The notes beneath the pieces are model-generated. The model did no database searches. It worked only from the letters and a program-made list of their open reading frames with translations, and was not told the DNA's origin. Position numbers and translations under genes: made by a program. Below, piece by piece: positions 40,402-64,000 of a DNA stretch of 64,000 nucleotides. Within the stretch, counting starts at the first letter, position 1, and each line of letters starts with the position of its first letter. Source of the stretch: a virus (taxonomy: Duplodnaviria > Caudoviricetes); IMG/VR virus record IMGVR_UViG_3300028840_002850, positions 698 through 64,697 of that record. The stretch is one strand, 5' to 3'.

Positions 40402-41262
40402 ATGAAGAAACTTTTTACTTTTCTTACAGTCTTTTTGGTTTTAGCTGCATTTTGTGTAGCTCCGGCTGACGCCGCAGTGCAACATTTTATAGCTAAAGTT
40501 TACAAACAGACAACTGAACGAGCCGACCAGCTGACTGAGATTACCTCCAATATCACCTATCAGGTCTTGGCGACTGATTCTGACACGGAGGAAACTCTTT
40601 ACAGCGACACGGCTTTAACCTCAAAAACCAACGCGGTCACGACAACGGTGTTTAACACCCAGGACCGGATTGATTTTTACTGCGACCCGACCGATAGCGG
40701 AGATGTGCAGGTTGATTTAGTCGTTACGCATACAGACGGTGGGTTTTCGGTATTTGTCGAGGATTTTGATATTTACACCCATAGCATCGTCATCGATGAG
40801 AGGCCCAATATCCTGCATCATGGCATGGTGCTTTTTGAAGATGCCGATGGCGCTTCAACCGATACCGGTGTGGATTTTCTGCCCGATACAGTCATTTTCA
40901 ACATGGCTGTCGAGGTCGTTACCATTGATAACGGCCAGGTCATCGATATTGAGACAGCCGATACCGCCAATGGTTTTGCGGTAGCTGTCCCGATGACAAC
41001 CGCGGGTTATTACTGGATCGGCAAGCCGACTATCACTGCCGGTGGAACTGAAACCTATGTTTCCACCGCTGCCTATGCCGGTTCGTTGATGGGAAGCTCG
41101 CTGGCTGGCGCAAACACCGCCACCGATGAGGGTTCTTCCTATCTGTGGCCTCATACTGTCATAACTTCCGGGACTGACGATGATCTGTATTTCGACACAG
41201 ACGCCAGTTCTGGTTTTGCGGCAACCGGATATATTCATTACTTTTTTATCCGTATGAGATAA
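40402..41262 (+). CDS. Virion-region protein with signal peptide (decoration-like)
   Basis: MKKLFTFLTVFLVLAAFCVAPADA; beta-rich body. Confidence 0.6.
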   Translation: MKKLFTFLTVFLVLAAFCVAPADAAVQHFIAKVYKQTTERADQLTEITSNITYQVLATDSDTEETLYSDTALTSKTNAVTTTVFNTQDRIDFYCDPTDSGDVQVDLVVTHTDGGFSVFVEDFDIYTHSIVIDERPNILHHGMVLFEDADGASTDTGVDFLPDTVIFNMAVEVVTIDNGQVIDIETADTANGFAVAVPMTTAGYYWIGKPTITAGGTETYVSTAAYAGSLMGSSLAGANTATDEGSSYLWPHTVITSGTDDDLYFDTDASSGFAATGYIHYFFIRMR

Positions 41263-41266
41263 CCGA

Positions 41267-41596
41267 TTGAAACTACGCAACAAACGGTACAGTGTCAGCA
41301 GATGGCTTTTGTTCCTGGCGCTGGCCTGTACCGTTTTTCTCGGATTCTATATCGGTCATTATGAAGTGGACCGGAAGCCAACCCCGAGAAGCCTGTTAAA
41401 CCTCGGGGGCAGTTACCTTGAATCCGGCGATATGCTGAATGCTTTAAAGTATTGGCGAATATGTGCTCTTTACAACGAGATTTACGGCACCAATTATGAT
41501 TACGATACCTATCCAGAGGGTAAGTATATAAAAACATGCCGTGATAATCTTTCGCACATAATTGTAAACGAACCACTTTTGAGGCGTGGTAAATGA
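41267..41596 (+). CDS. Membrane protein, TPR-like
   Basis: TM segment then LLNLGGSYLESGDMLNALKYW. Confidence 0.45.
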   Translation: MKLRNKRYSVSRWLLFLALACTVFLGFYIGHYEVDRKPTPRSLLNLGGSYLESGDMLNALKYWRICALYNEIYGTNYDYDTYPEGKYIKTCRDNLSHIIVNEPLLRRGK

Positions 41597-43896
41597 AAAA
41601 ATATATTATCCTATCTGTTCTTTTTATTTTACTTCTCGCGGCCAGTGTCGGCATTTCCGTCACTATCACAAAGGGTTTAATCGGAAAGCAGGATTTATCC
41701 CTTTGGAACGGCACTTCAACCAAGACCTTCACCCGCACCACTGAAGACAGCTACACTTTGACCTTAAATCAGTTCGATTGGGTTGGGGTTGATGTGCTTC
41801 AAAAATTTGGCGGTGGGGTAAGCCGAACCGATACGACCATTACCTCTGCCAAGGGAACCGTGGGTTCGTCAAATGATGTTGCGTTGTGGTTTTCTCCCGG
41901 TACCTGGACGATTACCGATGATTTAACCATTACTTCAAATATTACGATGGTTTTGCCCCCGGGAACTGTGTTTTCCATTACTGCTGGAAAGACGTTGACA
42001 ATTAATGGGCCGTTTAAGTCGGGTTTGTATCAGGTGTTTTCGGGTAGCGGGTCGGTTGCGTTCGGTAATTTTGTCAAAAAAGTATATCCCGAATGGTGGG
42101 GAGAGAACACGACTCCCGGCACAACAGATATGACAGCGGAAATACAGGCAGCTATTGACTCAGTAGGGGACGACGCTATTACTTATTTCTCACCTACATC
42201 CTATTTGATTTCAGATGTTATTGATGTCGATCAGGGATCTAATGTCTCCCTAATAGGTGAAAGCGGTGCAGAAATAATTTTATCCGTTGCTGACAAAGAC
42301 GGATTTAATATCACCCAAAATAATGTAACTGTCAGAAACCTAACAATGGAGGGAGAGGGGACTTATGTCACTTCTGGAAGTTCTGGCAAATCTCTTATTG
42401 TTACAAGTGGTGATCATACAATAATTAGAGATTGTTATCTGAAAGAACCAGAGCAAAGAGGGATTGAGATAACTGGTGATTATGCAGTAATAGAAGATAA
42501 TGTTATAGAGGGTGGTGACTATTTTGCTGATGCGGGTGCAATTGGTTCAGACAGACAGCATTACGGTATTTACCTTGCGAGTGGAGCCGATTATGCGAAA
42601 ATTACAGGTAATAAAATTATCCCCAACTCAGATGCCAATGCAGGGGTTGTTATTCAAGGAATTACAAACTCAAGTTATGCTCAAGATGCGCGAGTACAAA
42701 ACAACTATGTTAAAAATGCTTGGGATCATGGAATTTATTTAGTTGTTGAAAACTCCGTGATTTCCCAAAATGTTGTTGTGGGATGTGGAATAAAGACTGG
42801 GATGAGGGTATCGGGCACTTCTGTTAAGGGAAATGTTATTTCTGGGAACAGTGTGGACGTTAATGATCTTACTCGTCCTCTGGCGGGGGATGATGGGATT
42901 ATTTTAATTAACCCTAAATGGACGGTGGTTATAAACAATACTGTACGAAGAACAGCTGATTCGGGAATCGCTGTAAGTTGTGCGAGTCCCTATGTGGTAT
43001 CTCATAATTCCATTGTCGGTAATGTGATAGATAATGTGAGAGACGGCGCTGGATCGGATTCAGCAGGAATAGGGATAGACGATAGCAATATTACTATTTT
43101 CGCTCACAATGTTATATCGGGAAATGTCATATCTGACATAGGAGATGACACTGATGGTACACAGGCGGCTATTTATATAAATGTCGCGGATAATGCCAAC
43201 CATATAGGTAATGTGATTACAGGTAACACCATAGATACCTCGCAGGAAAATGGTATTTACGCAAAACATCTAACGGGATCTATTATTGGCAATAATATTT
43301 TTTACGATGTCGGGCAGGGAGCAGCATCAGCAGCTATTGAGGTTGACGATCTTCAAAGGTCTAGAGTGGAAGGTAACATAACCTATGGAGATGGGTCAAC
43401 ACTAAGCTATGGATATACGGAGACCAACTCGGATTATAATATTATTGATGGAAATACTTTTTATAACCCAGCTACGGCGATGATAAAAACAAGTGAATTC
43501 GGTTCTAATTCATCTGCAAGAAATAACTCATTGGGCAATGGGGATATTAGTGTTGATTCAACAGCAGATGCGCGGAGCATTCTCTACGGAGATTTAAATA
43601 AGAGTGTTCATTTAAGAGATCCCAACGGAGCGAGTAGGACAGATACAACAGACACGGCAGCTAATATTAATGCCCAATTACTTTTTAACGATGGAGCCAG
43701 CTTTGAAATTATCTATATAAACACTGGCGGTGCTGGTGAAACGATCACAATTGCCGGTGGAAGCAATGTTACTATTTACAATAATGAGGGAGCAGCCGAT
43801 TTGGTTATTCCCGCACAAAGCGGAGCGAGATTAATTTTTATTAGAGATTCTTCTACAACCGTCCGAGTGTTTGGGACGGTATTTGAGGCTGCATAA
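41593..43896 (+). CDS. Tailspike/depolymerase with pectin-lyase-like beta-helix
   Basis: YPEWWG...DMTAEIQAAID motif followed by many ISGN/ITGN repeats; signal-like N-terminus. Confidence 0.8.
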   Translation: MKKYIILSVLFILLLAASVGISVTITKGLIGKQDLSLWNGTSTKTFTRTTEDSYTLTLNQFDWVGVDVLQKFGGGVSRTDTTITSAKGTVGSSNDVALWFSPGTWTITDDLTITSNITMVLPPGTVFSITAGKTLTINGPFKSGLYQVFSGSGSVAFGNFVKKVYPEWWGENTTPGTTDMTAEIQAAIDSVGDDAITYFSPTSYLISDVIDVDQGSNVSLIGESGAEIILSVADKDGFNITQNNVTVRNLTMEGEGTYVTSGSSGKSLIVTSGDHTIIRDCYLKEPEQRGIEITGDYAVIEDNVIEGGDYFADAGAIGSDRQHYGIYLASGADYAKITGNKIIPNSDANAGVVIQGITNSSYAQDARVQNNYVKNAWDHGIYLVVENSVISQNVVVGCGIKTGMRVSGTSVKGNVISGNSVDVNDLTRPLAGDDGIILINPKWTVVINNTVRRTADSGIAVSCASPYVVSHNSIVGNVIDNVRDGAGSDSAGIGIDDSNITIFAHNVISGNVISDIGDDTDGTQAAIYINVADNANHIGNVITGNTIDTSQENGIYAKHLTGSIIGNNIFYDVGQGAASAAIEVDDLQRSRVEGNITYGDGSTLSYGYTETNSDYNIIDGNTFYNPATAMIKTSEFGSNSSARNNSLGNGDISVDSTADARSILYGDLNKSVHLRDPNGASRTDTTDTAANINAQLLFNDGASFEIIYINTGGAGETITIAGGSNVTIYNNEGAADLVIPAQSGARLIFIRDSSTTVRVFGTVFEAA

Positions 43897-44961
43897 ATGC
43901 CAATTCAACCACAGCAAACAGGACTTTACGAGGGCTTGATCCTTTCTGATTTAAAAAACAGATCGCTGGACCGGCTGAAAATCGCCCGGGGGAACTATGA
44001 CCGGTACTCTGCGGCTACCATATTAGACGCTCTAATCGACTCTGAAGTTGAAGCGGCTAGACTTACTAAATGTATTCGCTCGTTTGCGTTTATCGTTTTA
44101 AAAGAAGGTTACGCTCAATACCGGCCACCGAGCAACTTCTTAATGCTCGATAAGGTCTTTTTTTACAAATCCAATACCAATTATTACGAACTTAAACAAA
44201 AAACACGCCGATGGCTGGACAAGCATAAAAGAGGATGGCGAACCGTTACCGGCGACTCGCTGATCACGTTTCCGGGCGATAATTACGGTAACATGCGGAA
44301 AATAGGGGTTTATCCAACTCCTGACACGGACTCCGGATTTGAGATCGACCCTGACACCGGGGCTTACGAGAGGTCTTCGGCTGGGGCTCCTTCGGGTAAT
44401 GTCTCAGGGGCCAACGAGGCCGCACACGCCACTATCTGCACAAAAGCCGCGGGGGATTTTATCAACAACGGTGTCCAGGTCGGCATGATGGCGCTAAACG
44501 TCACAGACGGCAGTTCGGGCCAGATATCAGCTGTTTCCTCAACTACTTTCACCGTAACCTTAACCGGGGGAACAAATAACACCTGGGCGCTCGGAGACAG
44601 CTTCACGATTCTGGCTGGTGAGTACGGTGTGGTCACAGATTGGGATACGGATGAATCATATGTATTTACAACCGATTATGGGGTAATGACCGGTATTACG
44701 AATGAAAACAACCTTTACGTCGAATATTTCAGGCGTCCGATACCATTGCAGTATGACGGTCAATACCCCGAAATTCCACCTGAACTGCATCAATATCTGC
44801 CCGATAATGTTGTTTATCTTTTAAAAAGAAACGCCCCGAAGGGTTCGGGGGATTACAATGAGGCGGTTATCGGCCGGCAGGCGTTTTTAAACGGCATTTT
44901 TGGCTACGACGACCTTGACGACAGCATGGAAGATGATGTCGCAATGGATTGGAGCTTATAA
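43897..44961 (+). CDS. Head-tail adaptor-like protein
   Basis: Position; KIGVYPTPD and YPEIPPELHQYL motifs. Confidence 0.55.
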   Translation: MPIQPQQTGLYEGLILSDLKNRSLDRLKIARGNYDRYSAATILDALIDSEVEAARLTKCIRSFAFIVLKEGYAQYRPPSNFLMLDKVFFYKSNTNYYELKQKTRRWLDKHKRGWRTVTGDSLITFPGDNYGNMRKIGVYPTPDTDSGFEIDPDTGAYERSSAGAPSGNVSGANEAAHATICTKAAGDFINNGVQVGMMALNVTDGSSGQISAVSSTTFTVTLTGGTNNTWALGDSFTILAGEYGVVTDWDTDESYVFTTDYGVMTGITNENNLYVEYFRRPIPLQYDGQYPEIPPELHQYLPDNVVYLLKRNAPKGSGDYNEAVIGRQAFLNGIFGYDDLDDSMEDDVAMDWSL

Positions 44962-44972
44962 GGAGAATATTC

Positions 44973-45239
44973 ATGGCGAAAGGACTAAATTTAGTCAGCA
45001 CAAACATTCGTGAATGGCGCGGCACTGTAAACGACCCGGGAGACGACGCAACCTTGAAGATTCTGGTAGAGGTAAATGATGATACCGGTGCGTATGTGAA
45101 GTCTACGAGTTTAAATTGCAGATTCACCACCTTACCGGCTCAAGCGAAAGCCGCATTGAATAATTTCCTGCGCCTTATGAGCAGGGAAATCAATAACGAT
45201 TTGGTAGAAGAAGACTCTATTACGTGGTCTGATCTATAA
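44973..45239 (+). CDS. Hypothetical virion-region protein
   Basis: RBS AGGAG. Confidence 0.5.
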   Translation: MAKGLNLVSTNIREWRGTVNDPGDDATLKILVEVNDDTGAYVKSTSLNCRFTTLPAQAKAALNNFLRLMSREINNDLVEEDSITWSDL

Positions 45240-45242
45240 AAA

Positions 45243-46946
45243 ATGCCGAAGGATCTCATACCGATAAGGTTAGTTGGCGGGATTAACAATCGCCATACGC
45301 CGATTGATCTTTTCCTGATGGGCAAAGGCGATCTGGTTGATCTTGTCAACGCCGACACCACTTATTACGGTGAAATTCGTCCTTTACGGCCCCTGACGGC
45401 GCTAAATGCAACCGCTGAATCAAGTGCAATACACAGTTTGTTCAGGGCGAATTCGGTTCTTTTAGTTGGCACCAGCACCACCTTGAAGTATCTAAACGGC
45501 ACGGCTTTAACCACTCTTTTATCCAGCCTTGCCAGTGCGAATATGTCTTTTGCTCATGCCGGGAATTGGGTGTTTTTCGGAGAGGGCACAAATAAAGGGG
45601 CGGTATATACGACAACTCCAGTGGGAACCGATTGGGGTCTTGCAATCCCGGCAGCTGGGCCGACAACCGCGACCGGGGCTGCTGGCAACCCTGACGGGAC
45701 TTACACGTGTTATTACCGCTATCGAATTACCCTGCCGGATGGCACGGTGATTCTTACGGCTCTGTCAACGGTGTCCTCTCAGATTTCACCGTCAGCGCAG
45801 AAAATTTCATGGTCTGATATTGTTCACGCTTCTTTTACCGGCGCAACCTCTGTGCAGGTTGATCTTTTTCGCACTTATACCGGGGCCGGGGGAACTTATC
45901 TCGTTGCTACACTGGACGAAGGCACGACAACCTACACCGATGATTTAAGCGATGCCGATCTGATCACCCAGACGGCATACGCAGAGACAGGATACTGGCC
46001 ACCGCCCTCTAACCCTTCGATAGTCCGGTATCATCCCGGCGCTGACAGGGTGTTTGCCGCGGTTGACAATGCTTTATATTGGAGCGAGGCCGCAAAGTAT
46101 CACACATTTTTATACGACGAGGACGCCAGCGAGTACACCAATATAAACGATGTGTTTCTATCGGGGGAAGATATCACGGCATTGGAAATGCTCGATGAGC
46201 AGATGTATATCGGCTCCCCGAACACGTGGAGAAGGTTAAAGGGGACTGATCCTGATTCGTGGTCATTCGAGGACACCAGCGCCAGCAAGGGGCCGGTATC
46301 CAAAAGGGCAACTGTAAGAACCCGTTGGGGTTTAATCTATCCTGGAAATGACGGCCGTATGTGGCTGTTTAACGGTTTTGACGCAGTTCCGTTTTTAGAA
46401 CGGTTTGTGTTCGACACTGACCCTGATTCCACCTGTCACGCGACTTTCGACGGAAGATTCTACCGGTTATTTTACGGCGACAGCACATATCCCGAACTGG
46501 TGATCGATCTTTACGGTTTTCCCGAGATTTCTCCGAGGGCTATCAAGAGTACCAGGGATGCAGAGGCGTCTTTCTACGACAACCACAATGATGAATTTTA
46601 TCTTGGCGATTCAGATGGTTATGTGAGAAACAGTGCGGATACCGACGAGTCGGTGACTATTACAATAGAAACTCCTGAAATTCCAGTGGAAGATTTAACC
46701 CGATTCGGTGATATGGCCAAGCTGGTTTTAAGATGCGATACCGATAGTTCCGATTTAACCGTAACCCCGAAACGCGATGGTGTCTCGGGCAGTGCGCTTA
46801 CGGCTATAAACAATTCTGCCTTGACATTCGAGCACGTTCCGCTTGACTTGAACATATCGCATACACTGTCTTTCATTCTGAGCATTACATCAAGCGGGTC
46901 GGTGCTAATCAGAGATCCGCTTCTAATCGGCAAGGAAGATGGGTAA
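45243..46946 (+). CDS. Tail nozzle/stabilization protein (P22 gp10-like)
   Basis: GGINN start, LYWSE, beta-propeller-like repeats; position. Confidence 0.6.
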   Translation: MPKDLIPIRLVGGINNRHTPIDLFLMGKGDLVDLVNADTTYYGEIRPLRPLTALNATAESSAIHSLFRANSVLLVGTSTTLKYLNGTALTTLLSSLASANMSFAHAGNWVFFGEGTNKGAVYTTTPVGTDWGLAIPAAGPTTATGAAGNPDGTYTCYYRYRITLPDGTVILTALSTVSSQISPSAQKISWSDIVHASFTGATSVQVDLFRTYTGAGGTYLVATLDEGTTTYTDDLSDADLITQTAYAETGYWPPPSNPSIVRYHPGADRVFAAVDNALYWSEAAKYHTFLYDEDASEYTNINDVFLSGEDITALEMLDEQMYIGSPNTWRRLKGTDPDSWSFEDTSASKGPVSKRATVRTRWGLIYPGNDGRMWLFNGFDAVPFLERFVFDTDPDSTCHATFDGRFYRLFYGDSTYPELVIDLYGFPEISPRAIKSTRDAEASFYDNHNDEFYLGDSDGYVRNSADTDESVTITIETPEIPVEDLTRFGDMAKLVLRCDTDSSDLTVTPKRDGVSGSALTAINNSALTFEHVPLDLNISHTLSFILSITSSGSVLIRDPLLIGKEDG

Positions 46947-47217
46947 ACACTGGAAATATCAGGATACCGGCAACGGGGTTGCCAATATATTTTGCCCGAC
47001 TTTAACAGAAGCCAGGGTTGATAGCTTTACGGTTAAAAAGGAAATATATAAAGAATTTCAGGTATTTGAGAGAAAACTCAGAGAGAAATTTTCCGGGTGG
47101 GTTTCCTGGACTGAGTTACAAAACGATCATATCATGCTGTTTTGCGCCAAGAGTGGTGCGAAGCCGTTTGACATAGATATAAAAACCAAGCGCATTTGGT
47201 TTTATAAAAAATTTTAG
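46939..47217 (+). CDS. Small tail-assembly protein (GNAT-like position)
   Basis: Between the nozzle and ejection genes. Confidence 0.4.
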   Translation: MGKHWKYQDTGNGVANIFCPTLTEARVDSFTVKKEIYKEFQVFERKLREKFSGWVSWTELQNDHIMLFCAKSGAKPFDIDIKTKRIWFYKKF

Positions 47218-47226
47218 GAGGTAGTT

Positions 47227-47802: not shown

Positions 47803-47804
47803 TT

Positions 47805-48266
47805 ATGTGTGGCGAAGCAACAATGCCTTTAATGTATGTCGGGTCTAATCTTGCGGGTGCATATACCCAATCGAAGATGGCCAAAGATGCAGCTAAAAAG
47901 GCAGAAAAAAGTTACGATAAATATTTGGACACGATTAATCCACCCAAGAATGTGCTCGACGCCAGATATGCAGAAGCTAAAGATTATATTACCGGTTCTG
48001 CACCGACAGCCAGACGGCGGCTTGAAAACAGGCTTGCATCAAGAGGCATTCGGGGCCGCGGGGCGACATCTCCGATATCAGATCAGGAACAGGCAATTCA
48101 GGACCAGCTAAACGACGCCTATTTTAATGTTTACACGAATTACAATGTTCCTTCTCAGACACCCCCGGCAGTGCCGACTCCGAGTATGGGCCAGATGTTC
48201 GGCACGAATATAGCGCAGGGTATGAATTACATGCTTCCGCTTTGGTGGATGAATCAGACTAAATAG
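47805..48266 (+). CDS. Internal virion/ejection protein
   Basis: MCG start; LASRGIRG motif. Confidence 0.55.
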   Translation: MCGEATMPLMYVGSNLAGAYTQSKMAKDAAKKAEKSYDKYLDTINPPKNVLDARYAEAKDYITGSAPTARRRLENRLASRGIRGRGATSPISDQEQAIQDQLNDAYFNVYTNYNVPSQTPPAVPTPSMGQMFGTNIAQGMNYMLPLWWMNQTK

Positions 48267-54450: not shown

Positions 54451-55091
54451 TGCCAGACAGTCAACCAGCAGTAATAAATGTCAAAGACGAAAAGAATCAG
54501 GAATTGATTCGCCAGCTGAATTTTATCTTTAAAGACATCTATCGCTGGGTTGATTATATGCGGGGCATTCGAAACAACACCTTTGATCCGGTATCAATGG
54601 GGGGGCACGACCATCAATCAGACGATGCCGGGGGTGATTATGACTGGGCCGACTTTGAGGCAGCTGATGTTGTCTATCTTCAAGCATTAAGAGCGGCTAT
54701 TTTAGTTTCAAACCTGCTTGACAAATCTGCGGCTGAAACCGTCACTGGTGCGTGGACATTTAACGATCTAATCATAGATATCACAGATGGTGTTGTTACA
54801 TTCCAGAAAGAGGATGGAACCGGCCAGCCTGCTTATTTTCAGTTGTTTCCGGGTGCCGCATCAAATCAAGGTCCGATAATCGGGCTTTATACCTGCGACG
54901 ATCACGATAGCAATATTCCGTGGTACGGCTTACAGGTTCGTTATGACGATCTTTATCTTGGCCCGTCAACTGATCAGGACGCCTTGAAGTATGATGGAGG
55001 CAACAATCAGTGGGAATTTAGCAAGCCGGTAAAATTTTCCGACGATATCATTGGCGGCGGTGCAAAAGCATACTTTTTTGGAACTATGTAA
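54450..55091 (+). CDS. Tail fibre-associated protein
   Basis: ETVTGAWTF motif; position. Confidence 0.5.
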   Translation: MPDSQPAVINVKDEKNQELIRQLNFIFKDIYRWVDYMRGIRNNTFDPVSMGGHDHQSDDAGGDYDWADFEAADVVYLQALRAAILVSNLLDKSAAETVTGAWTFNDLIIDITDGVVTFQKEDGTGQPAYFQLFPGAASNQGPIIGLYTCDDHDSNIPWYGLQVRYDDLYLGPSTDQDALKYDGGNNQWEFSKPVKFSDDIIGGGAKAYFFGTM

Positions 55092-55415
55092 ATGGCAGAA
55101 ACATATACAAGATTAGCGGCATTAAGGCCAACAGATACAAACGAAGCTGAATTATATGCGGTTTCGGCAAGTCAATATATCGTTGCGACTTTGTTTATTT
55201 GCAACCAAGATAGCGTAGCCAGAACTTACCGGGTGGCGCTTTGTGACGATTCGGGTGCAGCAAGTGGGGAAGAATGGCTTGAATATGATACCGTAATTCC
55301 GGCAAATACAACATATTCTCTAAAATTCCCGGCAGGAGATGGAGACACAATAAGGGTTAAGGCAAGTGCGGCAGATGTTATAAGTTTCGTTTTGGCCGGA
55401 TTGAAAATAACATGA
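55092..55415 (+). CDS. Small virion beta-sandwich protein
   Basis: LYAV...ICNQD...YDTVIPANTT...GDTIRV. Confidence 0.55.
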   Translation: MAETYTRLAALRPTDTNEAELYAVSASQYIVATLFICNQDSVARTYRVALCDDSGAASGEEWLEYDTVIPANTTYSLKFPAGDGDTIRVKASAADVISFVLAGLKIT

Positions 55416-55450
55416 GATGAAATTGTTTTTCTTTTACATAGGAGTAGGAT

Positions 55451-57394
55451 ATGGCGACTAATATCACCGGCGTTACAATGCCTACTCCTGGTGGCGACCC
55501 CGCCATTAATGCCAATGGCAACTTCGCAATGGGGGGGCAGATAACCACAGCTGGTGGTGGCGGTTGGAGCGAGTCTGGTGATATGTATTTCCAGTGGGAT
55601 CAGGGCCTTGGCGACAGTGAGGGAAATTACGCTGACCTTGGTTCTACCGGCGATTTAAACATAGCGGCTCAGACCAATCCGATAACCGGGTTGCAGACGG
55701 AAACCGAGCAGCAAGTTACCGTTTACAACGACGGAACAGCCGGTACTTTTTATATTCGTGTTAAACTGATCGAAGACGACTTGACGGAGCATACCACCGC
55801 TGGACAACAGGTTACGGTAAGTGCTCAAGAACAGCAATCGGAATCGGTTAGCGAGAGCGCTAGCGAGAGTGCCAGCGAATCGGCGTCCGAATCCGCATCT
55901 GAGTCGGCTTCAGAGTCGGCGTCTGAGTCTGCCAGTGAAAGTCAATCAGAGTCAGCCTCAGAGAGTGCTTCTGAATCTGGATCATACAGCGCCTCAGAAT
56001 CAGAATCCGCGTCGGAATCCGCTTCTGAGAGCGCCAGCGAAAGCGCAAGCGAGTCTGCCTCCGAATCGGCGTCAGAAAGTGCCTCAGAAAGCGCCTCAGA
56101 GTCAGCTTCGGAAAGTGCTAGTTATTCTGCCTCAGAGTCAGAATCAGCATCCGAATCGGCGTCAGAATCAGCTTCCGAAAGTGCTTCCGAATCTGCCTCA
56201 GAATCAGCTTCGGAGAGCGCATCCGAGTCGGCCTCATATTCAGCATCAGAATCCGAAAGCCAAAGCGAATCCGCATCAGAAAGCGCGAGTGAGAGTGCCA
56301 GCGAATCGGCCTCAGAAAGCGCGTCGGAATCTGCAAGTGAGAGCGCAAGTGAATCGGCTAGCGAATCTGGTTCATATTCAGCTTCCGAGTCAGAGTCGAC
56401 CTCAGAAAGCCAATCGGAATCTGCGTCAGAGTCGGCCAGTGAAAGCGTGTCGGAAAGCGCTTCGGAGAGCGCATCTGAATCGGCATCTGAATCAGCAAGC
56501 CCGTCAGCATCCGGTGGAATATCCGAGAGTGCAAGCGAGAGCGCATCGGAATCGGCTTCAGAGAGTGCGTCAGAAAGTGGCAGCTATTCGGCATCGGAAT
56601 CAGAATCTCAATCCGAATCTGCCTCAGAGAGTGCCTCAGAGTCGGCATCGGAGTCACAATCAGAAAGCGCGTCCGAATCTGCCAGCGAGTCAGCTTCAGA
56701 GTCGGCGTCAGAAAGTGGCAGCTATTCGGCATCAGCATCCGAATCGGCCTCTGAGTCTGTCAGTGAGTCTGCCAGCGAATCGGCATCGTACAGCGCATCT
56801 GAATCAGAATCAGCTTCTGAAAGTGCGTCTGAATCGGCAAGTGAGTCAGCGTCCGAAAGCGCATCGTATTCTGCTTCTGAATCCGAATCGGCATCTGAAT
56901 CCGCTTCTGAGAGTGCGTCAGAGAGCGCGTCAGAGAGCGCCAGTTATTCGGCATCTGAGTCTGAATCAGCATCGGAGTCTGCCAGTGAGAGTGCCAGTGA
57001 ATCAGCAAGCGAATCAGAGTCGTATTCAGCATCTGAATCAGAATCGGCATCTGAAAGCGCATCAGAGTCAGCATCCGAATCGGCCAGTGAGAGTCAGTCT
57101 GAATCCGCATCAGAATCCGCATCAGAAAGTGCTTCTGAGAGTGCGTCTGAGAGCGCATCGGAGTCTGAGAGCGAATCTGCATCAGAATCAGCTTCAGAAA
57201 GCGCAAGTGAGAGCGCCAGCGAATCAGCGTCATATTCCGCATCAGAGTCGGAGTCGGCTAGCGAGTCGGTTTCGGAATCGGCTTCTGAGAGCGTGTCTGA
57301 GTCGGCATCACCAAGCGAATCATCTGCAAGCGCATCGGGCGGTGGGTCTGCTACCGGTGGCTGCGTATTTGTGAGTACTATATTAATTGGCTAA
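55451..57394 (+). CDS. Serine-rich repeat (mucin/SRR-like) protein
   Basis: About 125-aa globular N-terminus then about 500 aa of (SESA)n punctuated by SYSASE; no signal peptide. Confidence 0.85.
55836..57335 (+). repeat. Degenerate 12-bp coding repeat (Ser-Glu-Ser-Ala)
   Basis: Over 100 units with mixed TCN/AGY codons. Confidence 0.9.
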
Positions 57395-59609
57395 AGTATC
57401 TGTCATAATAGCAGGAAGATGTGAACAATATTTTCAAAAAACCGTTGAGTCGGTTTTTGAGTCAGCTAAAGAAGACGTTGAGGTTATGGCTGTTGTTGAT
57501 GGGCCGGGGCAAGACCCACCCGTCAAGGAAACAAAAAACACAAAGGTTATAAATCTTCCAGAATCCATCGGGCAGAGGGCAGCTTATAACATGGGTGTTA
57601 AAGAATCATGTGGTGAATATGTAATGAAGATAGATGCTCATGCCTTATTGTCGCCTGGATTTGATGTTAAGTTGAAAAACAACTGCCCACCCAAAACGGT
57701 AGTCTTGCCGGAAATGAGAAGGCTTGATCATAGGAAATGGAAACCAAAACCAAGGGGTAAAACTCTTTTCATGTATCCCGGCCTTGATTTGTACTGTCAT
57801 TACTGGAAGGATTACAAAAAACGACCAGAGGCAAAGGTTGACTATCCCGAAGTTATGACAGGGCAGGGATCGTGCTGGTTTACAACAAGGGAATGGAACG
57901 ATTATATAGGATTGCTCGATGAGGGTGTGGGATCATGGGGCAATGTCGGGATCGAGGTTTCTTTAAGAACATGGCTTTGCGGTGGTCGGCAAATAGCAAA
58001 TAAAAATTGCTGGCAAGCCCACTGGTTTAGGGTTTCAGAGGGTGGTTTCCCATATCCGTTTTCAGGAAGACAGGTAGCCAGGGCGCACAAGTACACATGG
58101 GAAAACTACTATTTTAAAGATAACGCCTTTAAAAATCAAGTTAGACCGTTTCATTGGTATATTAAAAAATTTGCTCCTGTACCTTCGTGGGAAGTTTATT
58201 TAAAAGATCAATACAAACCCAATAGAGTTATCGTATATTACACAGATAACAATCTTGAGAGATCACTTGCTGATGCGGCAAGGAAGAATTTGATAAAAGC
58301 GGCTGGGCCAATTCCGATTATAAGCGTTTCTCAGGAACCTTTAAATTTCGGTCAAAATATATGTGTCGGCAAAAAACCAAAAACAAAGTTGTCAATGTAC
58401 GAGCAAATGCTTGAGGGTGTAAAAGCCGCACCGGATGATTCTTTTATTTATCTATGTGAACACGATGTATTTTATCATTATAGCCATTTTGAAAAAGTAC
58501 CGCCCAAAGATGATGCTGTATGGATAAACCAAAATAAATATCACTGGCAGCAGGGAAATCATTTTTATCTAAAGGCGAAGGACCAGAAAGCATGGAGCAT
58601 GGCAACTGGTTCTAAAAAATATTTATTAGAAAAACTTGAAACCACCGTTAAAAATAAAATGGGTGAAATGAAGGTTAGGTGGTTTAAGTATAATAGTGAA
58701 CGGCCAAACATTGATATACGGCATGATAGGAACTTAACAAAAGGAATAAAAGCACACAAGAAACAGATTTTTAATATCGCAGGGTGGGGAAGCCCTAAAC
58801 ATTTTAAATCCGTTGCAAAATATAAAGGGACAATGCGGTTTGATATAATTCAATGGCTAATAGATTTTTATGATTTTACATCGTACCTTGAGATTGGAGT
58901 AAATAAGGGGCATACGTTTAAAGTTATAAAATGCGAGTTAAAGCATGGCGTTGATCCCAAAAGTAAATTTGCAACACACAAGGTAACAAGTGACGAATAT
59001 TTTAAAGGTTGTGATTTAAAATACGATATTATTTTCGTAGACGGGTTGCATGAACACTCACAGGTAAAGCGGGACATCTTAAATTCACTTGATCATTTAA
59101 AGCCGGGTGGGGTTATTGTGGTTCACGATTGTAAACCCCGTAATGAAAAAGAGCAGCACGTTCCCAAGCTTCCTAACCAAAAAATATGGGTTGGAGATGG
59201 GTGGAAAGCATTTGTTGAGTTACGCGAACGCAATGATCTTTATATGTATGTTGTGGATACAAATAATGGCGTTGGAATAATCCGGCGCGGTTTTCAGGTG
59301 CCACTAAAAAGAGATTGCCCTCTTGATTGGGTAAATTTTCAAAGAAATACAAAACGATGGTTGAAATTAAAAACGCCGGATGAATTTAAAAAATTTGAGC
59401 ATGACCTTTTTGAAGTTAAGAAATACAAACCGATGTCGCTTAAAATGATGGAAAAGCAGGGTGGTCGGCCAGGAACCATTTGTCAAGAATTAAGGGAAGT
59501 GTATTACAACATAGACAGTGAAGACCTAAAATATAAACTTCGGGTTTGTATGGCAATGGTTAAGTCGATGCACAGGCGCTTAAACGAATACAAAGAAAAC
59601 TTGTCTTAA
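57387..59609 (+). CDS. Multidomain glycosyltransferase: ppGalNAc-T-like GT-A + second GT-A-like domain + class I methyltransferase
   Basis: [34 protein letters not shown]...AHWFR; LCEHDVFY; YLEIGV...IFVDGLH...GGVIVVHD. Confidence 0.8.
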
Positions 59610-60100
59610 TGCACGAAAACAGCTATAAATTAATGAGGGGATTTGTCAGAAAGTATGTTGATTTGGACAAGCCGTTATTAGTTGCCGAAATTGGCAGTAT
59701 GCAATACCACGACCAGCCCTGGTTATATAGGAATCTTTTTCACGACAAGCACGTTTATTTGGGAATTGATATTGAAGATGGGCCAAATGTAGATTGTGTT
59801 TTGAAAAATCCTTACGATTGGAAAGAGCTTAGAGACACTTCTTTTGATATCATCGTAAGTGGCCAGATGCTTGAACATTGCGAAAAATTCTGGTTAGTGG
59901 CTAAAGAGATGAAAAAAATCATAAAACCCGGTGGTTTGATTTGCCTTGTCGCTCCCTGGATGATGGGCAAGCACAAGGCTCCGGTTGATTGTTGGAGGAT
60001 TTTACCGGACGGGATGAAGGTTATTGGGGATTTGATGGGTGCGGATACTGTTGAGGCCCGAAGGTCAAAAAAAGATTGCATAGGTATTTTTAAGGTGTAG
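59609..60100 (+). CDS. Class I SAM-dependent methyltransferase
   Basis: EIGS, YLGIDI.DGPNVD, FDIIVSGQMLEH, KPGG and PVDCWR. Confidence 0.85.
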   Translation: MHENSYKLMRGFVRKYVDLDKPLLVAEIGSMQYHDQPWLYRNLFHDKHVYLGIDIEDGPNVDCVLKNPYDWKELRDTSFDIIVSGQMLEHCEKFWLVAKEMKKIIKPGGLICLVAPWMMGKHKAPVDCWRILPDGMKVIGDLMGADTVEARRSKKDCIGIFKV

Positions 60101-60103
60101 CTA

Positions 60104-60439
60104 ATGGGATGCCCTGCTGAAGTAGCAATAGAAGACAATTTGGTTTTTTCGGTTTGCTCACATGATCCCGACACAGGGGTTTTAACTGATGCCGATGCTG
60201 TACCTTCTTATCGACTGTATGAAGACGAAACCGGAACCCCAATTTTAACCGGAAATATGGATAAGATAGATGATGCCAACACCACCGGATTCTATACCGA
60301 ACTTATAGCGTGTACCCTGGCAAACGGATTTGAGAGTGGAAAGTCCTACACCATTTACATTACAGGGGCGGTAGATGGCGATACGGGTGGTATTTGCTTT
60401 GGATTTAAAGTTGCACCAATTAAACGATATATATCTTGA
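60104..60439 (+). CDS. Hypothetical virion-region protein
   Basis: Beta-rich 111 aa. Confidence 0.5.
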   Translation: MGCPAEVAIEDNLVFSVCSHDPDTGVLTDADAVPSYRLYEDETGTPILTGNMDKIDDANTTGFYTELIACTLANGFESGKSYTIYITGAVDGDTGGICFGFKVAPIKRYIS

Positions 60440-60451
60440 TAGGAGTAAAAC

Positions 60452-60904
60452 ATGAAAAAATTATTGATCGCCTTTTTAATTCTTTTCGCATGGGTTAGTA
60501 TCAGCTTTGCCGCAGGCACGGTTGTACCCTCAATCGGTGACGAGCAGGACGGAAGCATTACCGTTACGTTAGTGTGTACGAGTGACGGCAGTGGTGTTAT
60601 ATCCGACACCGACTTTGCAGGGCCAGGGACGGATCTAACAAAAAATCTGCACGGCTATTACCTGTATGAAGTCAAGGTTGTCCCGGGAGCTACCGGCCCA
60701 AAAGATGATTCAGACCTTTACATTAAGGATGCAAATGGTATAGACTTATTGGGCGGAACTGGTGTGAACAGGATAGACGAAACCACCAACAGCCATTTTC
60801 AGCCTCCATTTTATTCGAGGATTAACTCGACCCTGACTCTGGATGTTGATAATAATGATGTGGACAGTTCCACCTATACCATAACATTAGTATTCGCTAA
60901 ATAA
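60452..60904 (+). CDS. Virion-region protein with signal peptide
   Basis: MKKLLIAFLILFAWVSISFA; DANGIDLLGG motif. Confidence 0.55.
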   Translation: MKKLLIAFLILFAWVSISFAAGTVVPSIGDEQDGSITVTLVCTSDGSGVISDTDFAGPGTDLTKNLHGYYLYEVKVVPGATGPKDDSDLYIKDANGIDLLGGTGVNRIDETTNSHFQPPFYSRINSTLTLDVDNNDVDSSTYTITLVFAK

Positions 60905-60974
60905 ATAAAAACATAACGACCCACTGCCTCAGTAACACTTACGCTTTGGGTTTGTAAGCCAGCCGCAGCTTCTT

Positions 60975-61019
60975 AAAAGCCCCGCTGGAACAAAAACCTT
61001 TGTTCTTGTGGGGCTTTTT
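60975..61019 (+). terminator. Long hairpin + U-tract upstream of the giant gene
   Basis: AAAAGCCCC...GGAACAAA/TTTGTTCT...GGGGCTTTT. Confidence 0.6.
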
Positions 61020-61037
61020 GCCTCAAGGAGTTGCGAT

Positions 61038-64000
61038 ATGAAGAAAAGATTTTTAGCCCTAACGCTTTTAATTATCTTTACCGCTGGTCTGGCTTACGCG
61101 ATACCCCCATCCCCGCCTGTGCCTACCACCGGTCTTAAAACGTATGCAGTAGCAGATCTGCCTGCTGCTTCGGACAATGCTAATATGGCGGTCATTGTCA
61201 TCGATGGCGATGGAGCCGGAGATTGTACGACCGGGCTCCAAAGCACAAGGGTAATTTGCGTATCAAACGGAAGTTCTTGGGAAGCTGCCGGTGATGGGAC
61301 CGGTGGAGAAGGATCGGGATCTGTAACCACGATTCAAATTGGGGATGATTCTCTCGATACTGATATTGTGGTTGTGGATTTCAATGCCACAGTGTTTTCG
61401 GGGGTAGAAGCACCGGAAAACGAAGCCAATATTGATCTCGATCTAACACCGTCTAGCGGAAATGCCACTTTAATAGCAGAAGAAGATGCACTCCAAGTTA
61501 AGTATGACAGCACTTTAACAGAGGGTGCAAGTGGTCTGGGCATAGCCGCCGATGCGATTGACGAGGCTTATCTTGCCGACGATAGTATCGATTCAGAGCA
61601 TTATAATGACGGCTCGATTGACGCAGCGCATTTAGCCGCTGATGTTATCGATGAAACCAAAATCGCAGATGACGGTATCGACTCCGAGCACTATAACGCC
61701 GACTCAATAGACAACGAGCATATCAACTGGGCAGATATTGATAATCTTGGAGACGAAGGGGCCATAACGGTTGCCGATACGACAGACGCCACTGCTTACG
61801 TGGCTTTGTGGGAATCGGCTACCGGCGACCTGGCCGCTAGATCCGATGCGGGTTTAACCTATAACGCCGAAACAGGGGTTCTTACCGCCACGGGCTTTTC
61901 CGGTCCACTTACGGGCAATGTCACAGGAACCGCCTCTCTCGCCACAACCCTGACAATCACAGACAATGAAAGTGAAAACGAAAACAATGCCGTTATATTC
62001 GCTTCCGGTGGCGCAGTGGAGGGCGGGGATATCGGTCTGGAGTCGGATGGAACCTTTTACTATAATCCGTCAACGGGAACCGTCACCTCTACCGCATTTG
62101 CGGGAGCATTAACCGGCAATGTCACAGGAACCGCTGACACAGCGACAGTTGCCACCACCGTTACGATTACCGACAACGAAGATACCGCAGAAACAAACGC
62201 CATTATATTTGCAGAAGGCGGGGATTTAGACGGCGGTGATCTGGGTCTGGAATCAGATGGAAATCTTACCTATAACCCGGGAGCCGGTCAGCTTCAAGCA
62301 ACCTCCCTCACCGATGGCACTTCGGTTATCACCGGAGGCGAAATTGAACTCGGCGCAGCCGCAGACACCACGCTTGCCCGGGCTGCTGCTGGCGCTGTCA
62401 CCGTGGAAGGCGATTATATCATTCTTTCCGGTGACACACTAACCGGAGAAGTCACGGCAACTTTCGATACGGACGGATCAACAGCGACCACTATCGCAGA
62501 TAGCGTAGCGGTTTCCAGCTGGAACCTCACCACCCCGACAATTACGAGCGGTGCGGTTTTTACCGGTGCCGATGCCTCCCCCGATGCAGATGGGGAATTG
62601 GTTTATGACAATGTAACCGCAGGGGTAGATGACGGCCAATTCGCCTACTATGGTGGCGGCGACACGGTATATTATTTACCCTCTTATGTCACATTACCGA
62701 CAGACTCAGAGGACGATTACCATCTTGCTTACGATAAGGATATCGACCGCCTGTATTGGCGTGCTGATGCCACAGCCGGGGCTCCAACCCTTGATTCGGT
62801 AGGCGACCCGGACGCAGAGTGGACACCGGTACATGCAGACGAGGAAAAAATAACCATCTCAACGGCACAGGACACTGCCGGCAGCTTTATGGTTATCGAT
62901 GATACCGACACGGCAATCGGTAACAATGTCTACCTATTGGAACTTCAGCACTCCGATGATGGCGAAGCCAATGCGGATTTCTTCAAATGTGTGGATAACA
63001 ACACCGATGTCTGGTTTTCCATTCAGGAAGAAGGCAAGACTTCCATTGGTAACGCACCGGCCACAACCGGGGCGCTCAACCTCGAAAATGCAGCCGCTAT
63101 CGCATGGCTGGATGCCACCCCCGCTACAATCACCCACGTAGACGATACCGGATTAGCCTTTAATCTTGGCATTGACGTTCAGGGTTCGGGTGGAATCACT
63201 CTTGAAAATGATGAGACGATTACAAATTCAAGTGACGGATATATAGCCCTTAGTGGACATCTGGTTATCCCGGATGCGGGTAATATCGGCTCGGCTTCAG
63301 ATACCGATGCAATCGCCATTGCCTCTGACGGCAAGACCACGTTCACACAGGACTTGACGGTTAATGAAGATATCATCATAGGCGATGCAAAATATATCGG
63401 TTCTGCTACTGCCCCAACTGCGATGCAGATTGCGGCCACGGGGATTGTCACCTTTATTGACGATATTCTTATTAAAGACGCCGGGACAATCGGCTCTGCC
63501 TCTGCCACAACCGCGATATCCATAGCTTCTGACGGAATAGTGACCTTTGTTGACGATATTATTATCAAGGATACCGGGACAATCGGCTCTGCTTCCGACG
63601 TGGACGCCATAGCAATAGCCGCTGACGGCAAGGTTACTTTCTCTCAAGATTTAATTATTTCCGGCACGGGCATAGAGTTAAATCATGCTTCAGAGAACAC
63701 CCTGACCGCTTCCGGCGGGGTACTTAGTATCGAGGGCGGGGCGTTAGCTCCGGTGGCCTCACCTACCTTTACCGGCATCGTAACCATCCCAATAGCCGCT
63801 GACCCGACTACCGATGCAGACGGGGAGATTTCCTTTGATACCGATGGATGGGGATCAGGGTACGACGCACTGGAAATCTGGAACGGCACGGCTTCGGCTT
63901 ATGTTGTGGCAACAACAGCTTCAGATACCCCCTCAAACGGGGAAATCCCGACTTTTAATACTGGCGGCACGATAACATGGGAAACTGCCGGAACCGGGGA
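61038..64000 (+). CDS. N-terminal part of giant acidic tail-fibre/adhesin-like protein (3'-truncated)
   Basis: RBS AAGGAG, MKKRFLALTLLIIFTAGLAYA, open to the window end; IDSEHY..SID, TITDNE and IGSASD repeats. Not in the ORF track because it has no stop. Confidence 0.8.
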   Translation, partial: MKKRFLALTLLIIFTAGLAYAIPPSPPVPTTGLKTYAVADLPAASDNANMAVIVIDGDGAGDCTTGLQSTRVICVSNGSSWEAAGDGTGGEGSGSVTTIQIGDDSLDTDIVVVDFNATVFSGVEAPENEANIDLDLTPSSGNATLIAEEDALQVKYDSTLTEGASGLGIAADAIDEAYLADDSIDSEHYNDGSIDAAHLAADVIDETKIADDGIDSEHYNADSIDNEHINWADIDNLGDEGAITVADTTDATAYVALWESATGDLAARSDAGLTYNAETGVLTATGFSGPLTGNVTGTASLATTLTITDNESENENNAVIFASGGAVEGGDIGLESDGTFYYNPSTGTVTSTAFAGALTGNVTGTADTATVATTVTITDNEDTAETNAIIFAEGGDLDGGDLGLESDGNLTYNPGAGQLQATSLTDGTSVITGGEIELGAAADTTLARAAAGAVTVEGDYIILSGDTLTGEVTATFDTDGSTATTIADSVAVSSWNLTTPTITSGAVFTGADASPDADGELVYDNVTAGVDDGQFAYYGGGDTVYYLPSYVTLPTDSEDDYHLAYDKDIDRLYWRADATAGAPTLDSVGDPDAEWTPVHADEEKITISTAQDTAGSFMVIDDTDTAIGNNVYLLELQHSDDGEANADFFKCVDNNTDVWFSIQEEGKTSIGNAPATTGALNLENAAAIAWLDATPATITHVDDTGLAFNLGIDVQGSGGITLENDETITNSSDGYIALSGHLVIPDAGNIGSASDTDAIAIASDGKTTFTQDLTVNEDIIIGDAKYIGSATAPTAMQIAATGIVTFIDDILIKDAGTIGSASATTAISIASDGIVTFVDDIIIKDTGTIGSASDVDAIAIAADGKVTFSQDLIISGTGIELNHASENTLTASGGVLSIEGGALAPVASPTFTGIVTIPIAADPTTDADGEISFDTDGWGSGYDALEIWNGTASAYVVATTASDTPSNGEIPTFNTGGTITWETAGTG

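Follow-up and report, generated by a model that had tools for sequence, protein, structure and literature searches.

Introduction

Tailed-phage assembly is taught as a purely cytoplasmic process. The host Sec route is used by the coat proteins of filamentous phages, which assemble at the membrane and possess neither capsid nor tail, and by Sec- or signal-arrest-release (SAR)-type endolysins, which are not virion appendages. Exported moron and exclusion proteins, such as Lom and Bor of phage lambda and Llp of T5, carry a signal peptide or lipobox and are encoded in or beside virion modules of temperate phages; such proteins are small lipoproteins or outer-membrane proteins, expressed on their own, present in some phages and not in others, and without kinship to virion parts. 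Here we describe a 64,000-nucleotide stretch of phage DNA (the window; bases 698-64697 of the 64,697-bp IMG/VR virus record IMGVR_UViG_3300028840_002850) in which seven late proteins, named by the first base of their genes (40402, 41593, 60452, 61038, 4001, 4804 and 6384), begin with predicted Sec-type leaders. Unlike those of Lom, Bor and Llp, these leaders sit on cement-, spike- and fibre-type proteins, seven of them in a packed late operon.

Exported proteins of phage-tail type have also been described in bacteria. In the work of Caulton and colleagues from 2024, Bdellovibrio reportedly exports mosaic adhesive trimer fibres that resemble phage tail fibres and displays them outside the cytoplasm; those are chromosomal genes of a predator, whereas the window belongs to a phage genome with capsid, portal and terminase. 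WceF of Pantoea stewartii is a trimeric beta-helix enzyme of tailspike fold with a cleaved N-terminal export signal, acting on the bacterium's own exopolysaccharide (PMC7949094). The WceF signal is of the Tat type and its gene lies in a chromosomal exopolysaccharide cluster (PMC7949094), whereas the window leaders have no twin arginine and belong to a phage late operon. A keyword full-text search of the open-access literature, with supplements outside its scope, found no description of Sec leaders on tailed-phage virion-type proteins.

Export signals on cement, spike and fibre look-alikes allow two readings: either a two-compartment assembly route exists, or phages routinely place copies of their host-recognition proteins in the envelope, where these serve in exclusion, exit or the destruction of receptors. 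If either is true, the annotation of receptor-binding proteins and the view of how lysis timing is coupled to particle completion would change, and so would expression for phage engineering, in which leader-bearing spikes may need periplasmic expression. New in this analysis are a capsid-cement look-alike among the leader proteins, so that the phenomenon extends beyond fibres and spikes, a counted, junction-exact dimorphism of leader-bearing and leaderless members in three families, a large phage-specific family around 60452, and operon evidence against morons.

Sec-type leaders on seven late proteins

The leaders of the seven proteins are very probably cleavable Sec/signal peptidase I signal peptides, and the proteins very probably exported and cleaved. 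A preliminary description of this DNA had reported basic, hydrophobic N-termini ending in small residues on seven named proteins, and all seven are present as described (Table 1); for the one placed at 4786 the leader stands, and the likeliest start is a TTG at 4804 inside that open reading frame (ORF). The capsid, portal, nozzle and (SESA)n proteins, which had been called leaderless, are so indeed, as are TerS, TerL and the adaptor.

In all seven, positive charge directly follows the initial Met in the n-region (MKK, MKR or MSIKKK), and the h-region has a mean Kyte-Doolittle value of 2.2-3.0 over 14-19 uncharged residues. The -3/-1 sites read ADA/A in 40402, SFA/A in 60452, AYA/I in 61038 and GIS/V in 41593 (the slash marks the predicted cleavage), the last placed by alignment to relatives, while the cleavage position in 4001, 4804 and 6384 is only approximate from sequence. 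The predicted mature proteins open with AVQHFIAK... (40402), (V)TITKGLIGK... (41593), AGTVVPSIGDEQ... (60452) and IPPSPPVPTT... (61038). The sequences show neither a twin arginine nor a lipobox Cys at +1 in any of the seven, and no second hydrophobic segment; BLAST among them found no common domain. Their mature parts are all strongly acidic, the fibre containing 413 Asp and Glu versus 48 Lys and Arg.

Leaders were called by our own heuristic, not by SignalP. It asks for a net positive n-region, an uncharged h-region of 8-20 residues with a mean Kyte-Doolittle value >=1.9, and small residues at -1/-3. The detector flagged 9 of 34 late-module proteins, namely the seven named and the signal-anchor-like ORFs 30397 and 41267; in controls it flagged 2/168 internal Met positions, 11/1651 internal positions and 117/3250 shuffled N-termini (binomial P ~2e-10 for 9/34 at a 1.2% rate). 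Five starts (40402, 60452, 61038, 4001 and 4804) have a clear Shine-Dalgarno-like sequence 5-10 nucleotides (nt) upstream (AAGGAG, TAGGAG, CAAGGAG, GGAGG, GGGAG). The start of 41593 is preceded by GAGG, and that of 6384 overlaps the stop of the preceding gene. The positions of these sites favour starts at ATG 61038 and ATG 4001 over the longer ORFs at 61008 and 3977.

These start sites bear on the notion that the leaders go unused, as mis-called starts, as tolerated extensions or in another role such as oligomerisation, and that the particle is assembled in the cytoplasm as in textbooks. Such a notion would draw on the TTG start of 4804, on the lack of a clear ribosome-binding site before 6384 and on the ability of fast-folding trimers to escape Sec export. 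It is very improbable in view of the Shine-Dalgarno-like sequences before the leader-bearing starts of 40402, 60452, 61038 and 4001, the absence of an in-frame Met just after the leader in the window's 40402, 41593 and 60452, the control rate of the detector of about 1%, and an n-h-c architecture kept over hundreds of diverged homologues.

Conservation of the leaders and their leaderless relatives

Conservation of the leaders in homologues had been named as a check, and the leader is kept in the families of 40402, 60452 and the N-terminal domain (N-domain) of 41593. The family search with 40402 gathered 86 proteins including the query, of which 81 carry a leader, two are leaderless and three are N-terminally truncated. 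Lys or Arg in the n-region together with an h-region was found in 81/86, and small residues at -1/-3 in 80/81 leaders, with Ala at -1 in 79/81 and at -3 in 68/81 and a median length of 24 amino acids (aa). The two leaderless homologues, P0008 and P0025, start M-A-[Q/L]-K-H-F, exactly at the junction between leader and mature protein.

The same picture was obtained with 60452, for which an exhaustive search revealed 616 representatives at E<=1e-3. Among the best 150 of the 616, a hydrophobic leader is seen in 125, of which 115 satisfy the whole heuristic; 24 are leaderless and one is a fragment, and small residues occupy -1/-3 in 110/118 leaders. The 24 leaderless relatives begin MA(G/A/S), mostly MAGTVT, and the leader-bearing ones read ...FA/AGTVT. 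The N-domain of 41593 occurs in 316 proteins. Among 43 rows with the domain at the N-terminus, picked from 120 listed of the 316, 22 are leader-bearing and 21 leaderless, starting M-x(-x) directly before ITKG. When 119 listed rows were classed independently and pairwise, 28 had a leader (26 of them at the domain start), 21 were leaderless and 6 had another extension, the N-domain being away from the N-terminus or unaligned in the other 64. Start codons of some relatives were chosen by our own ORF caller.

For the giant fibre (61038) one true N-terminal orthologue was found, P0222, with a diverged leader and a conserved mature part (67% identity over the searched region); among 120 listed proteins with fibre repeats, 21 have leader-like N-termini, the others resembling ordinary tail fibres at their start. 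Viral contigs scanned with single proteins gave no match for 40402 or 4001 and two weak C-terminal matches for 6384, and the conservation of the leader in 4001, 4804 and 6384 is seen only in analogues at two loci of relatives, L026 and L027. In the 40402, 60452, spike N-domain and fibre-orthologue comparisons, the leader is kept as a type while its sequence drifts.

Leaderless members begin at the mature N-terminus in three unrelated families, which fixes the cleavage site, and a dimorphism located at one place in three families is hard to explain without leader removal at that site. The leader-bearing and leaderless twins show that the mature protein should work whether it is made in the cytoplasm or exported, and they offer a ready natural experiment on whether the route matters. 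Export, which the preliminary description had proposed, is thus strongly supported at the level of the families by the conserved leaders, the Ala at -3/-1 and the junction-starting variants; the functional options it had offered fare differently, as set out below.

The same counts weigh on the idea that the leaders are uncleaved anchors holding appendage proteins at the inner membrane, either as staging for late assembly or as a means of keeping sticky or enzymatic parts away until lysis. The conserved small residues at -1 and -3 in the 40402 and 60452 families are needless for an anchor, and leaderless members start at the junction in all three families, which makes anchoring improbable even though the h-region of 41593 is long (about 19-20 residues), the neighbouring late ORFs 30397 and 41267 look like plain signal anchors and the leaders are helical in AlphaFold2 (AF2) models. 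Even as a type II anchor, moreover, the leader would put the protein on the periplasmic side.

Proposed export before assembly: a cement-like protein and a tailspike

We tentatively prefer, as one statement, the reading that the seven proteins are exported through Sec and matured, and that the virion-type ones join particles when lysis breaches the inner membrane. The seven would be made late with the virion module, be translocated across the inner membrane and reach their mature form in the periplasm. Those of virion type (the cement-like 40402 and the tailspike 41593, probably also 60452 and the giant fibre) would be surface add-ons, which in other phages are bound last to finished particles, and would reach particles already filled with DNA no earlier than the rupture of the inner membrane at lysis. 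Until release, the exported beta-helix enzymes 41593, 4804 and 6384 could act on host envelope polysaccharide. The tailspikes of P22, like decoration proteins, bind finished particles last and can be added in vitro. Since cement, spikes and fibres are late-binding add-ons, they could dock once lysis opens the inner membrane. We infer export and cleavage, and with most reserve the joining, from the leaders, their conservation, the junction twins, the likeness in fold and gene slot and the packing of the genes. The preference for joining at lysis comes from the cement-like fold and position of 40402 and from the anchor domain that 41593 has in common with leaderless spikes.

The alternative is that the proteins are exported and never join the particle. 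They would then be envelope-remodelling depolymerases and adhesin- or fibre-like surface proteins, expressed late or in the lysogen, and the leaderless products of 54450-57394 would arm the virion. By stripping or masking the cell's own receptor polysaccharide such proteins could block superinfection, stop progeny from sticking to debris or ease exit through slime. We regard this main alternative as only a little less likely than joining at lysis, and it is weighed against each of the following results.

The AF2 model of 40402 (pLDDT 94.2) was searched with its jellyroll against 48,161 chains. The best match was the cement protein of cyanophage Pam1 (7eel_H, Z 11.4, root-mean-square deviation (rmsd) 2.2 over 109 residues), followed by the cement of Helicobacter phage KHP40 (7dou_4, Z 10.5) and the 'virion associated protein' of Ralstonia phage GP4 (8h89_J, Z 10.0); the three cement matches superpose with rmsd 2.2-3.1 over 105-125 residues, and further matches have Z <=9.0. 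The jellyroll of these cement proteins (Pam1 7eel H, GP4 8h89 J, KHP40 7dou) is thus the fold modelled for residues 136-286 of 40402. The gene slot agrees as well. The window order is major capsid protein (MCP), 39178, 40096, 40402 ... adaptor, and the order MCP-39178-40096-40402-adaptor is kept, with 40402 leader-bearing, in 9/9 assessable relatives (L003-L010, L020). In the GP4-like phage Gervaise, the gene of the 8h89_J type (E 4.9e-99), which is also related to the Pam1 cement protein (7e-6), is leaderless and immediately follows the MCP gene, the adaptor gene coming two genes later; like the 40402 gene it therefore stands between MCP and adaptor. Leaderless genes of 137-151 aa follow the MCP gene in distant phages of the same MCP lineage (L011, L014-L019), and the MCPs of the Pam-type and GP4-like lineages are homologous to that of the window. 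Cultured podoviruses in 81 records, among them GP4-like Ralstonia phages, BcepIL02, KPP25 and the cyanophages Pan3 and Pam5, have MCPs with 24-32% identity to that of the window.

The cement proteins of Pam1, GP4 and KHP40 are 124-157 aa long and leaderless (checked for the GP4 type), whereas 40402 adds a 24-aa signal peptide and an Ig/CnaB-like domain. It has no detectable sequence similarity to them; the likeness is known here from gene and model alone, and a tblastn search with 40402 of 50,697 phage records found no match. Hence, 40402 resembles a capsid cement protein in modelled fold and gene slot only. This fold and slot, and the presence of the protein in all assessable relatives, unlike an accessory moron, speak against proteins that are secreted and stay off the particle.

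Between 40402 and the spike lies the small ORF 41267. Four relatives encode instead, right after the cement-like gene, a multi-pass membrane protein (L003:5788-6864, L004:3958-5082, L005:13295-14428 and L010:4451-5620) of 358-389 aa with at least seven hydrophobic segments and an invariant P-x-H-N-E motif. ORF 41267 is not a remnant of this protein, to which it has no similarity. An identity as Wzy_C/O-antigen ligase was considered for the membrane protein and not adopted, the one weak match (in 1/4, E 7e-4, below cut-off) being a lead only; nothing was found in NCBIfam (2/4 scanned) or by profile against PDB sequences.

The second virion-type protein, 41593, matches Pfam Beta_helix (8.4e-22), NosD (2.5e-12) and PHROG tail spike (2.9e-12), and its model (pLDDT 89.1) resembles the Pam1 tailspike (7eea_A, Z 17.4), with the Pam1, Fri1 and CBA120 tailspikes at Z 14-17, and polysaccharide lyases. 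The fold search covered model residues 65-336, so that the first ~40 mature residues were barely sampled. Like the Pam1 tailspike (7eea), 41593 has a beta-helix body of depolymerase type and a gene inside the tail module. Its N-domain (residues about 23-200) bears the motif TITKGLIGKQD...TFTR...TLTLN..DWxGVDV, and the 316 proteins with this domain continue into varied C-terminal domains (Beta_helix, Pectate_lyase_3, GH28, P22 Head_binding and others), which suggests an anchor-like, particle-binding module of a spike. No match to the N-domain was found among 50,697 cultured-phage records. A complex prediction of three spike copies (residues 23-130) with the adaptor scored 0.00, a value that counts neither for nor against binding. 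Unlike leaderless podovirus tailspikes such as that of Pam1, 41593 and 22/43 of the picked N-domain rows have a Sec-type leader before the domain; gp9 of P22 and gp14 of Sf6 are leaderless podovirus tailspikes that we take to be comparable. The spike gene lies beside the adaptor gene in the window, in the adaptor-nozzle gap in L010 and in the spike slot after the ejection proteins in L026. The use of this N-domain also by leaderless spikes in the canonical slot speaks against enzymes that never meet the particle.

For 60452 no family match was obtained, and its look-alike clusters in the Atlas are 88-100% viral, so that it is, by these comparisons, a member of what appears to be a large phage-specific family. 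The almost wholly viral make-up of these clusters likewise stands against a purely secreted role. The 2504-aa fibre ORF crosses the record junction (window 61038-64000, then 553 bases, then 1-3999). Its residues 169-235 match repeats in cyanopodovirus and pelagiphage proteins, and only this short repeat is common with cultured phages.

Operon packing and loci of relatives

The late leader genes stand closely packed, overlapping or lying 0-46 nt apart (Table 1), and the adaptor gene starts at the base after the spike stop codon (43896/43897). The gaps at 41262/41267, 41596/41593 and 43896/43897 are too short for promoter or terminator signals. Promoter-like sites numbered 8 vs 11.1, 19 vs 12.6 and 14 vs 14.9 in shuffles, by a sigma-70 consensus that may not be the host's, and terminator-like sites 7 vs 6.0, 6 vs 6.7 and 4 vs 4.1, that is, at chance level. 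The packing and these counts speak against separately expressed morons, and the tight coupling to the adaptor gene likewise opposes a separate envelope function. Lysogen surface proteins, one of the functional options of the preliminary description, are favoured by the temperate nature of the phage; they are disfavoured by the packing of the genes in the late operon, by promoter and terminator sites at chance and by the presence of a leader-bearing 40402 gene in 9/9 relatives, where it is not patchy as an occasional moron would be.

A role as lysogen surface or exclusion protein suits two early ORFs of the window better than it suits the late leader proteins; the two fit the class of Lom, Bor and Llp. 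The first, 10749-11351 (-), lies in the early/lysogeny region and encodes a 200-aa protein with a lipobox (...NIIGC); the second, 19798-20229 (-), just upstream of the integrase gene, encodes a protein of ~143 aa with a classical leader (MKKIALILAFCVVPFLAHA/V).

The loci available for co-occurrence (5 viral, 1 viral, 7 metagenome) are too few for genome-wide statistics and are therefore reported one by one. L026 has a leader-bearing spike in the usual podovirus slot after the ejection proteins, followed by two more leader-bearing proteins of 649 and 650 aa, the latter a relative of 6384. Ahead of the spike stands a leaderless ORF of 302 aa that matches nothing in the window. In the 19.6 kb of this locus, the leader genes have no large spike- or fibre-like neighbour without a leader; that L026 shows only leader-bearing spike and fibre candidates is a further point against proteins that stay off the particle. 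L027 has a leaderless spike followed by three leader-bearing proteins, and L028 a leader-bearing 60452-like gene followed by a leaderless spike. The spike of L029 is leaderless and the spike fragment of L030 leader-bearing. In L031, L032, L035 and L037, 2-4 consecutive leader genes come after a leader-bearing 60452-like gene; in L033, the one locus with a leaderless 60452 member and assessable downstream genes, no convincing leader is adjacent. The relative G001, with an MCP 80% identical to that of the window, has a leader-bearing cement-like gene and further leader or lipobox ORFs. Leaders thus cluster within genomes, without being strictly all-or-none.

The locus L031 (L031:1-12770) has a siphovirus-like layout, in which an overlapping pair of chaperone-like ORFs precedes a 1057-aa tape-measure-like ORF. 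All genes after this long ORF are leader-bearing (147, 294 and 94 aa), and a 471-aa leader protein follows the MCP-like gene; from this layout, the leader phenomenon is not limited to podoviruses.

It is possible, and we advance it with reserve, that a widespread set of tailed phages builds its outer layer of cement, tailspikes, fibres and a small fibre-side protein through the host Sec route and docks it at lysis. The outer-layer parts would mature in the periplasm and dock onto DNA-filled particles made in the cytoplasm only during the brief period in which lysis unites the two compartments; in relatives, the weakly O-antigen-ligase-like membrane protein encoded beside the cement-like gene may modify them beforehand in the periplasm. 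By gaining or losing its leader, one and the same protein would then switch between two assembly routes in the course of evolution.

Evidence for a possible role off the particle

Several results weigh against docking at lysis, and some of them favour the free envelope proteins introduced above. In 4804 and 6384 the beta-helix region follows straight after the leader, with no anchor domain, and both look, in their predicted layout, like ordinary secreted beta-helix enzymes. The leaderless fibre candidates at 54450-57394, among them the ORF 55092 with its PHROG tail-fibre match, mean that the particle could be complete without any exported protein. In G001, leaderless (372 aa) and leader-bearing (690 aa) spike paralogues stand in tandem, a mixed pair compatible with a division of labour in which one copy serves the particle and the other is exported. 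The cement likeness of 40402 has its own difficulties, as hhalign of its family against the GP4-type cement protein gave a probability of 0.6%, the family profile had 0 matches at E<=10 among PDB sequences, and cement proteins are commonly expected to act in the cytoplasm, stabilising the head while DNA is packaged or soon afterwards. Localisation, cleavage and virion content are, besides, predictions from sequence, with leaders called by our own heuristic, and the leader proteins of the window lack paired cysteines.

The temperate nature of the phage, the glycan genes that adjoin leader genes (the GT2-methyltransferase genes of the window and the weak Wzy_C likeness of the membrane protein in one of the four relatives) and the bacterial precedent of WceF (PMC7949094) also suit free envelope proteins. 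A mixed outcome is quite possible as well, in which 40402, 41593 and 60452 are virion-bound and 4001, 4804 and 6384 free.

Periplasmic folding by means of Cys pairs had been put forward as a reason for export and finds no support in the window proteins, mature 40402 and 60452 having one Cys each. The density of Cys is 0.72 per 100 aa in the seven leader proteins vs 1.14 in leaderless late proteins. Within the 60452 family, a Cys occurs in the first ten mature residues of 30/106 leader-bearing vs 1/30 leaderless members (Fisher P 0.003), and at least two Cys in 51/106 vs 8/30 (P 0.04); the link is weak since the rows are related sequences, and gives a weak hint that leader-bearing forms of this family may see an oxidising compartment. 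The spike N-domain has no Cys trend with the leader.

The genome and its other features

With its 144-bp direct terminal repeat, the record represents a whole circle of 64,553 bp, of which 553 bases lie outside the window. The phage is a complete temperate podovirus (short-tailed), called temperate because integrase, ERF and YqaJ are present; the genes for integrase, for the recombination proteins ERF and YqaJ and for a DNA methylase are all on the minus strand. The window also encodes a series of ejection-type proteins, one of 1760 aa, and no tRNA gene was found there. The features discussed are collected in Table 1.

Table 1. Positions of the leader-bearing proteins and other features in the window (a slash marks the predicted cleavage site)
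Feature	Position	Strand	Length (aa)	N-terminus	Description
40402 protein	40402..41262	+	286	MKKLFTFLTVFLVLAAFCVAPADA/AVQ	24-aa leader (MKK...APADA/A); Ig/CnaB-like domain 25-135; jellyroll 136-286
41267 ORF	41267..41596	+	109		Basic N-terminus, one hydrophobic segment (signal-anchor-like); no family match
41593 protein	41593..43896	+	767	MKKYIILSVLFILLLAASVGIS/VTITKG	Tailspike-like beta-helix; leader ~22 aa; predicted mature (V)TITKGLIGKQD... opens anchor/neck domain
60452 protein	60452..60904	+	150	MKKLLIAFLILFAWVSISFA/AGT	20-aa leader (...SISFA/AGTVV); kin found next to fibre/spike genes
Giant fibre, N-part (61038)	61038..64000	+	987 of 2504	MKKRFLALTLLIIFTAGLAYA/IPP	21-aa leader (...GLAYA/IPPSPP)
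Giant fibre, C-part	1..3999	+	1332 of 2504		No Pfam or PHROG match
4001 protein	4001..4813	+	270	MKRVLFALACFLIIAGVSSS	Acidic; leader ~20 aa; no family match in Pfam or PHROG
4804 protein	4804..6387	+	527	MSIKKKYLFIFILLFILSFPMWGFSA	TTG start; leader ~25 aa; Beta_helix 2e-4, below cut-off
6384 protein	6384..8102	+	572	MKKYLIILLLIPVSAFGA	Beta-helix; leader 15-18 aa; Pfam Beta_helix 1e-12
TerS, TerL					Leaderless
Portal					Leaderless; P22-type, 5.2e-80
MCP	38121..39149	+			Leaderless; Phage_capsid_3 4.3e-33; phrog_334 6.6e-47
Adaptor, small ORF, nozzle-like protein	43897..46946	+			All leaderless
Adaptor	43897..44961	+			SU10_adaptor 1e-10
Nozzle-like protein	45243..46946	+			Adaptor/nozzle position matches annotated ones of phage KLEP18-1
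Leaderless fibre-set candidates	54450..57394	+	213, 107, 647		107-aa ORF 55092, PHROG tail fibre 3.7e-6; 647-aa (SESA)n protein
GT2 glycosyltransferase-methyltransferase fusion, then methyltransferase	57387..60100	+	740, 163		Directly upstream of distal leader-bearing block
Boundaries of packed late genes	41262/41267; 41596/41593 (overlap); 43896/43897; 3999/4001; 4813/4804 (overlap); 6387/6384 (overlap)

Among the leaderless fibre-set candidates, the first ~105 residues of the 54450 protein are 54% identical to a protein in G001. The (SESA)n protein (55451-57394, +), 647 aa long and leaderless, opens with a domain of ~125 aa; about 500 aa of near-perfect repeats follow, broken periodically by SYSASESE, and the chain ends in a short hydrophobic tail. 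Its sole NCBIfam matches, to Ser-Asp repeat adhesins, reflect composition. Directly after its gene comes the GT2-methyltransferase fusion gene, and the stretch 57387..60100 matches Glycos_transf_2 (8.6e-10), Methyltransf_24 (2.1e-11) and Methyltransf_11 (2.8e-8).

The ejection-type protein of 1760 aa (49168-54450, +) has a ParB_N-like stretch at residues ~710-770 and a region that matches PHROGs annotated as DarB-like antirestriction (4.6e-20). Scans of the late genes with Pfam and PHROG, and of the early genes with Pfam, recognised no endolysin, holin or spanin family; by shape only, the signal-anchor-like ORFs 30397-30801 and 36453-36857 are lysis candidates.

As for the host, a genome scan for leads gave one locus, in a Dehalococcoidia bin of a metagenome-assembled genome (MAG), and the names found in protein clusters are Deltaproteobacteria, Thermodesulfobacteriota and Algoriphagus MAGs. 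Shine-Dalgarno-like sites precede 28/47 plus-strand genes, and sites as frequent as these speak against a Bacteroidota host.

In the early region, ORF 11365-12318 (-) has sub-threshold matches to trypsin-like peptidases. The early ORFs 20374-20988 (-) and 21256-21963 (-) are 78% identical over their C-terminal 85 residues, and each common C-terminal part contains a hydrophobic segment, with no family match.

An extra block of genes lies between portal and scaffold in the close relative G001 (loci L044 and L005; G001:C1, about 7900-20300). One gene of the G001 block is weakly similar to the GT2 gene of the window and another has a Rossmann-type N-terminus (MRILITGGAGFIGS), so that the block looks like a sugar-metabolism cassette inside the head module. 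In the window itself, G+C falls to 0.41 at 42001-44000 (spike body) and to 0.38 at 58001-60000 (glycosyltransferase/methyltransferase) between flanks of 0.46-0.50, and these dips over the spike body and the glycosyltransferase/methyltransferase genes are consistent with horizontally exchanged modules.

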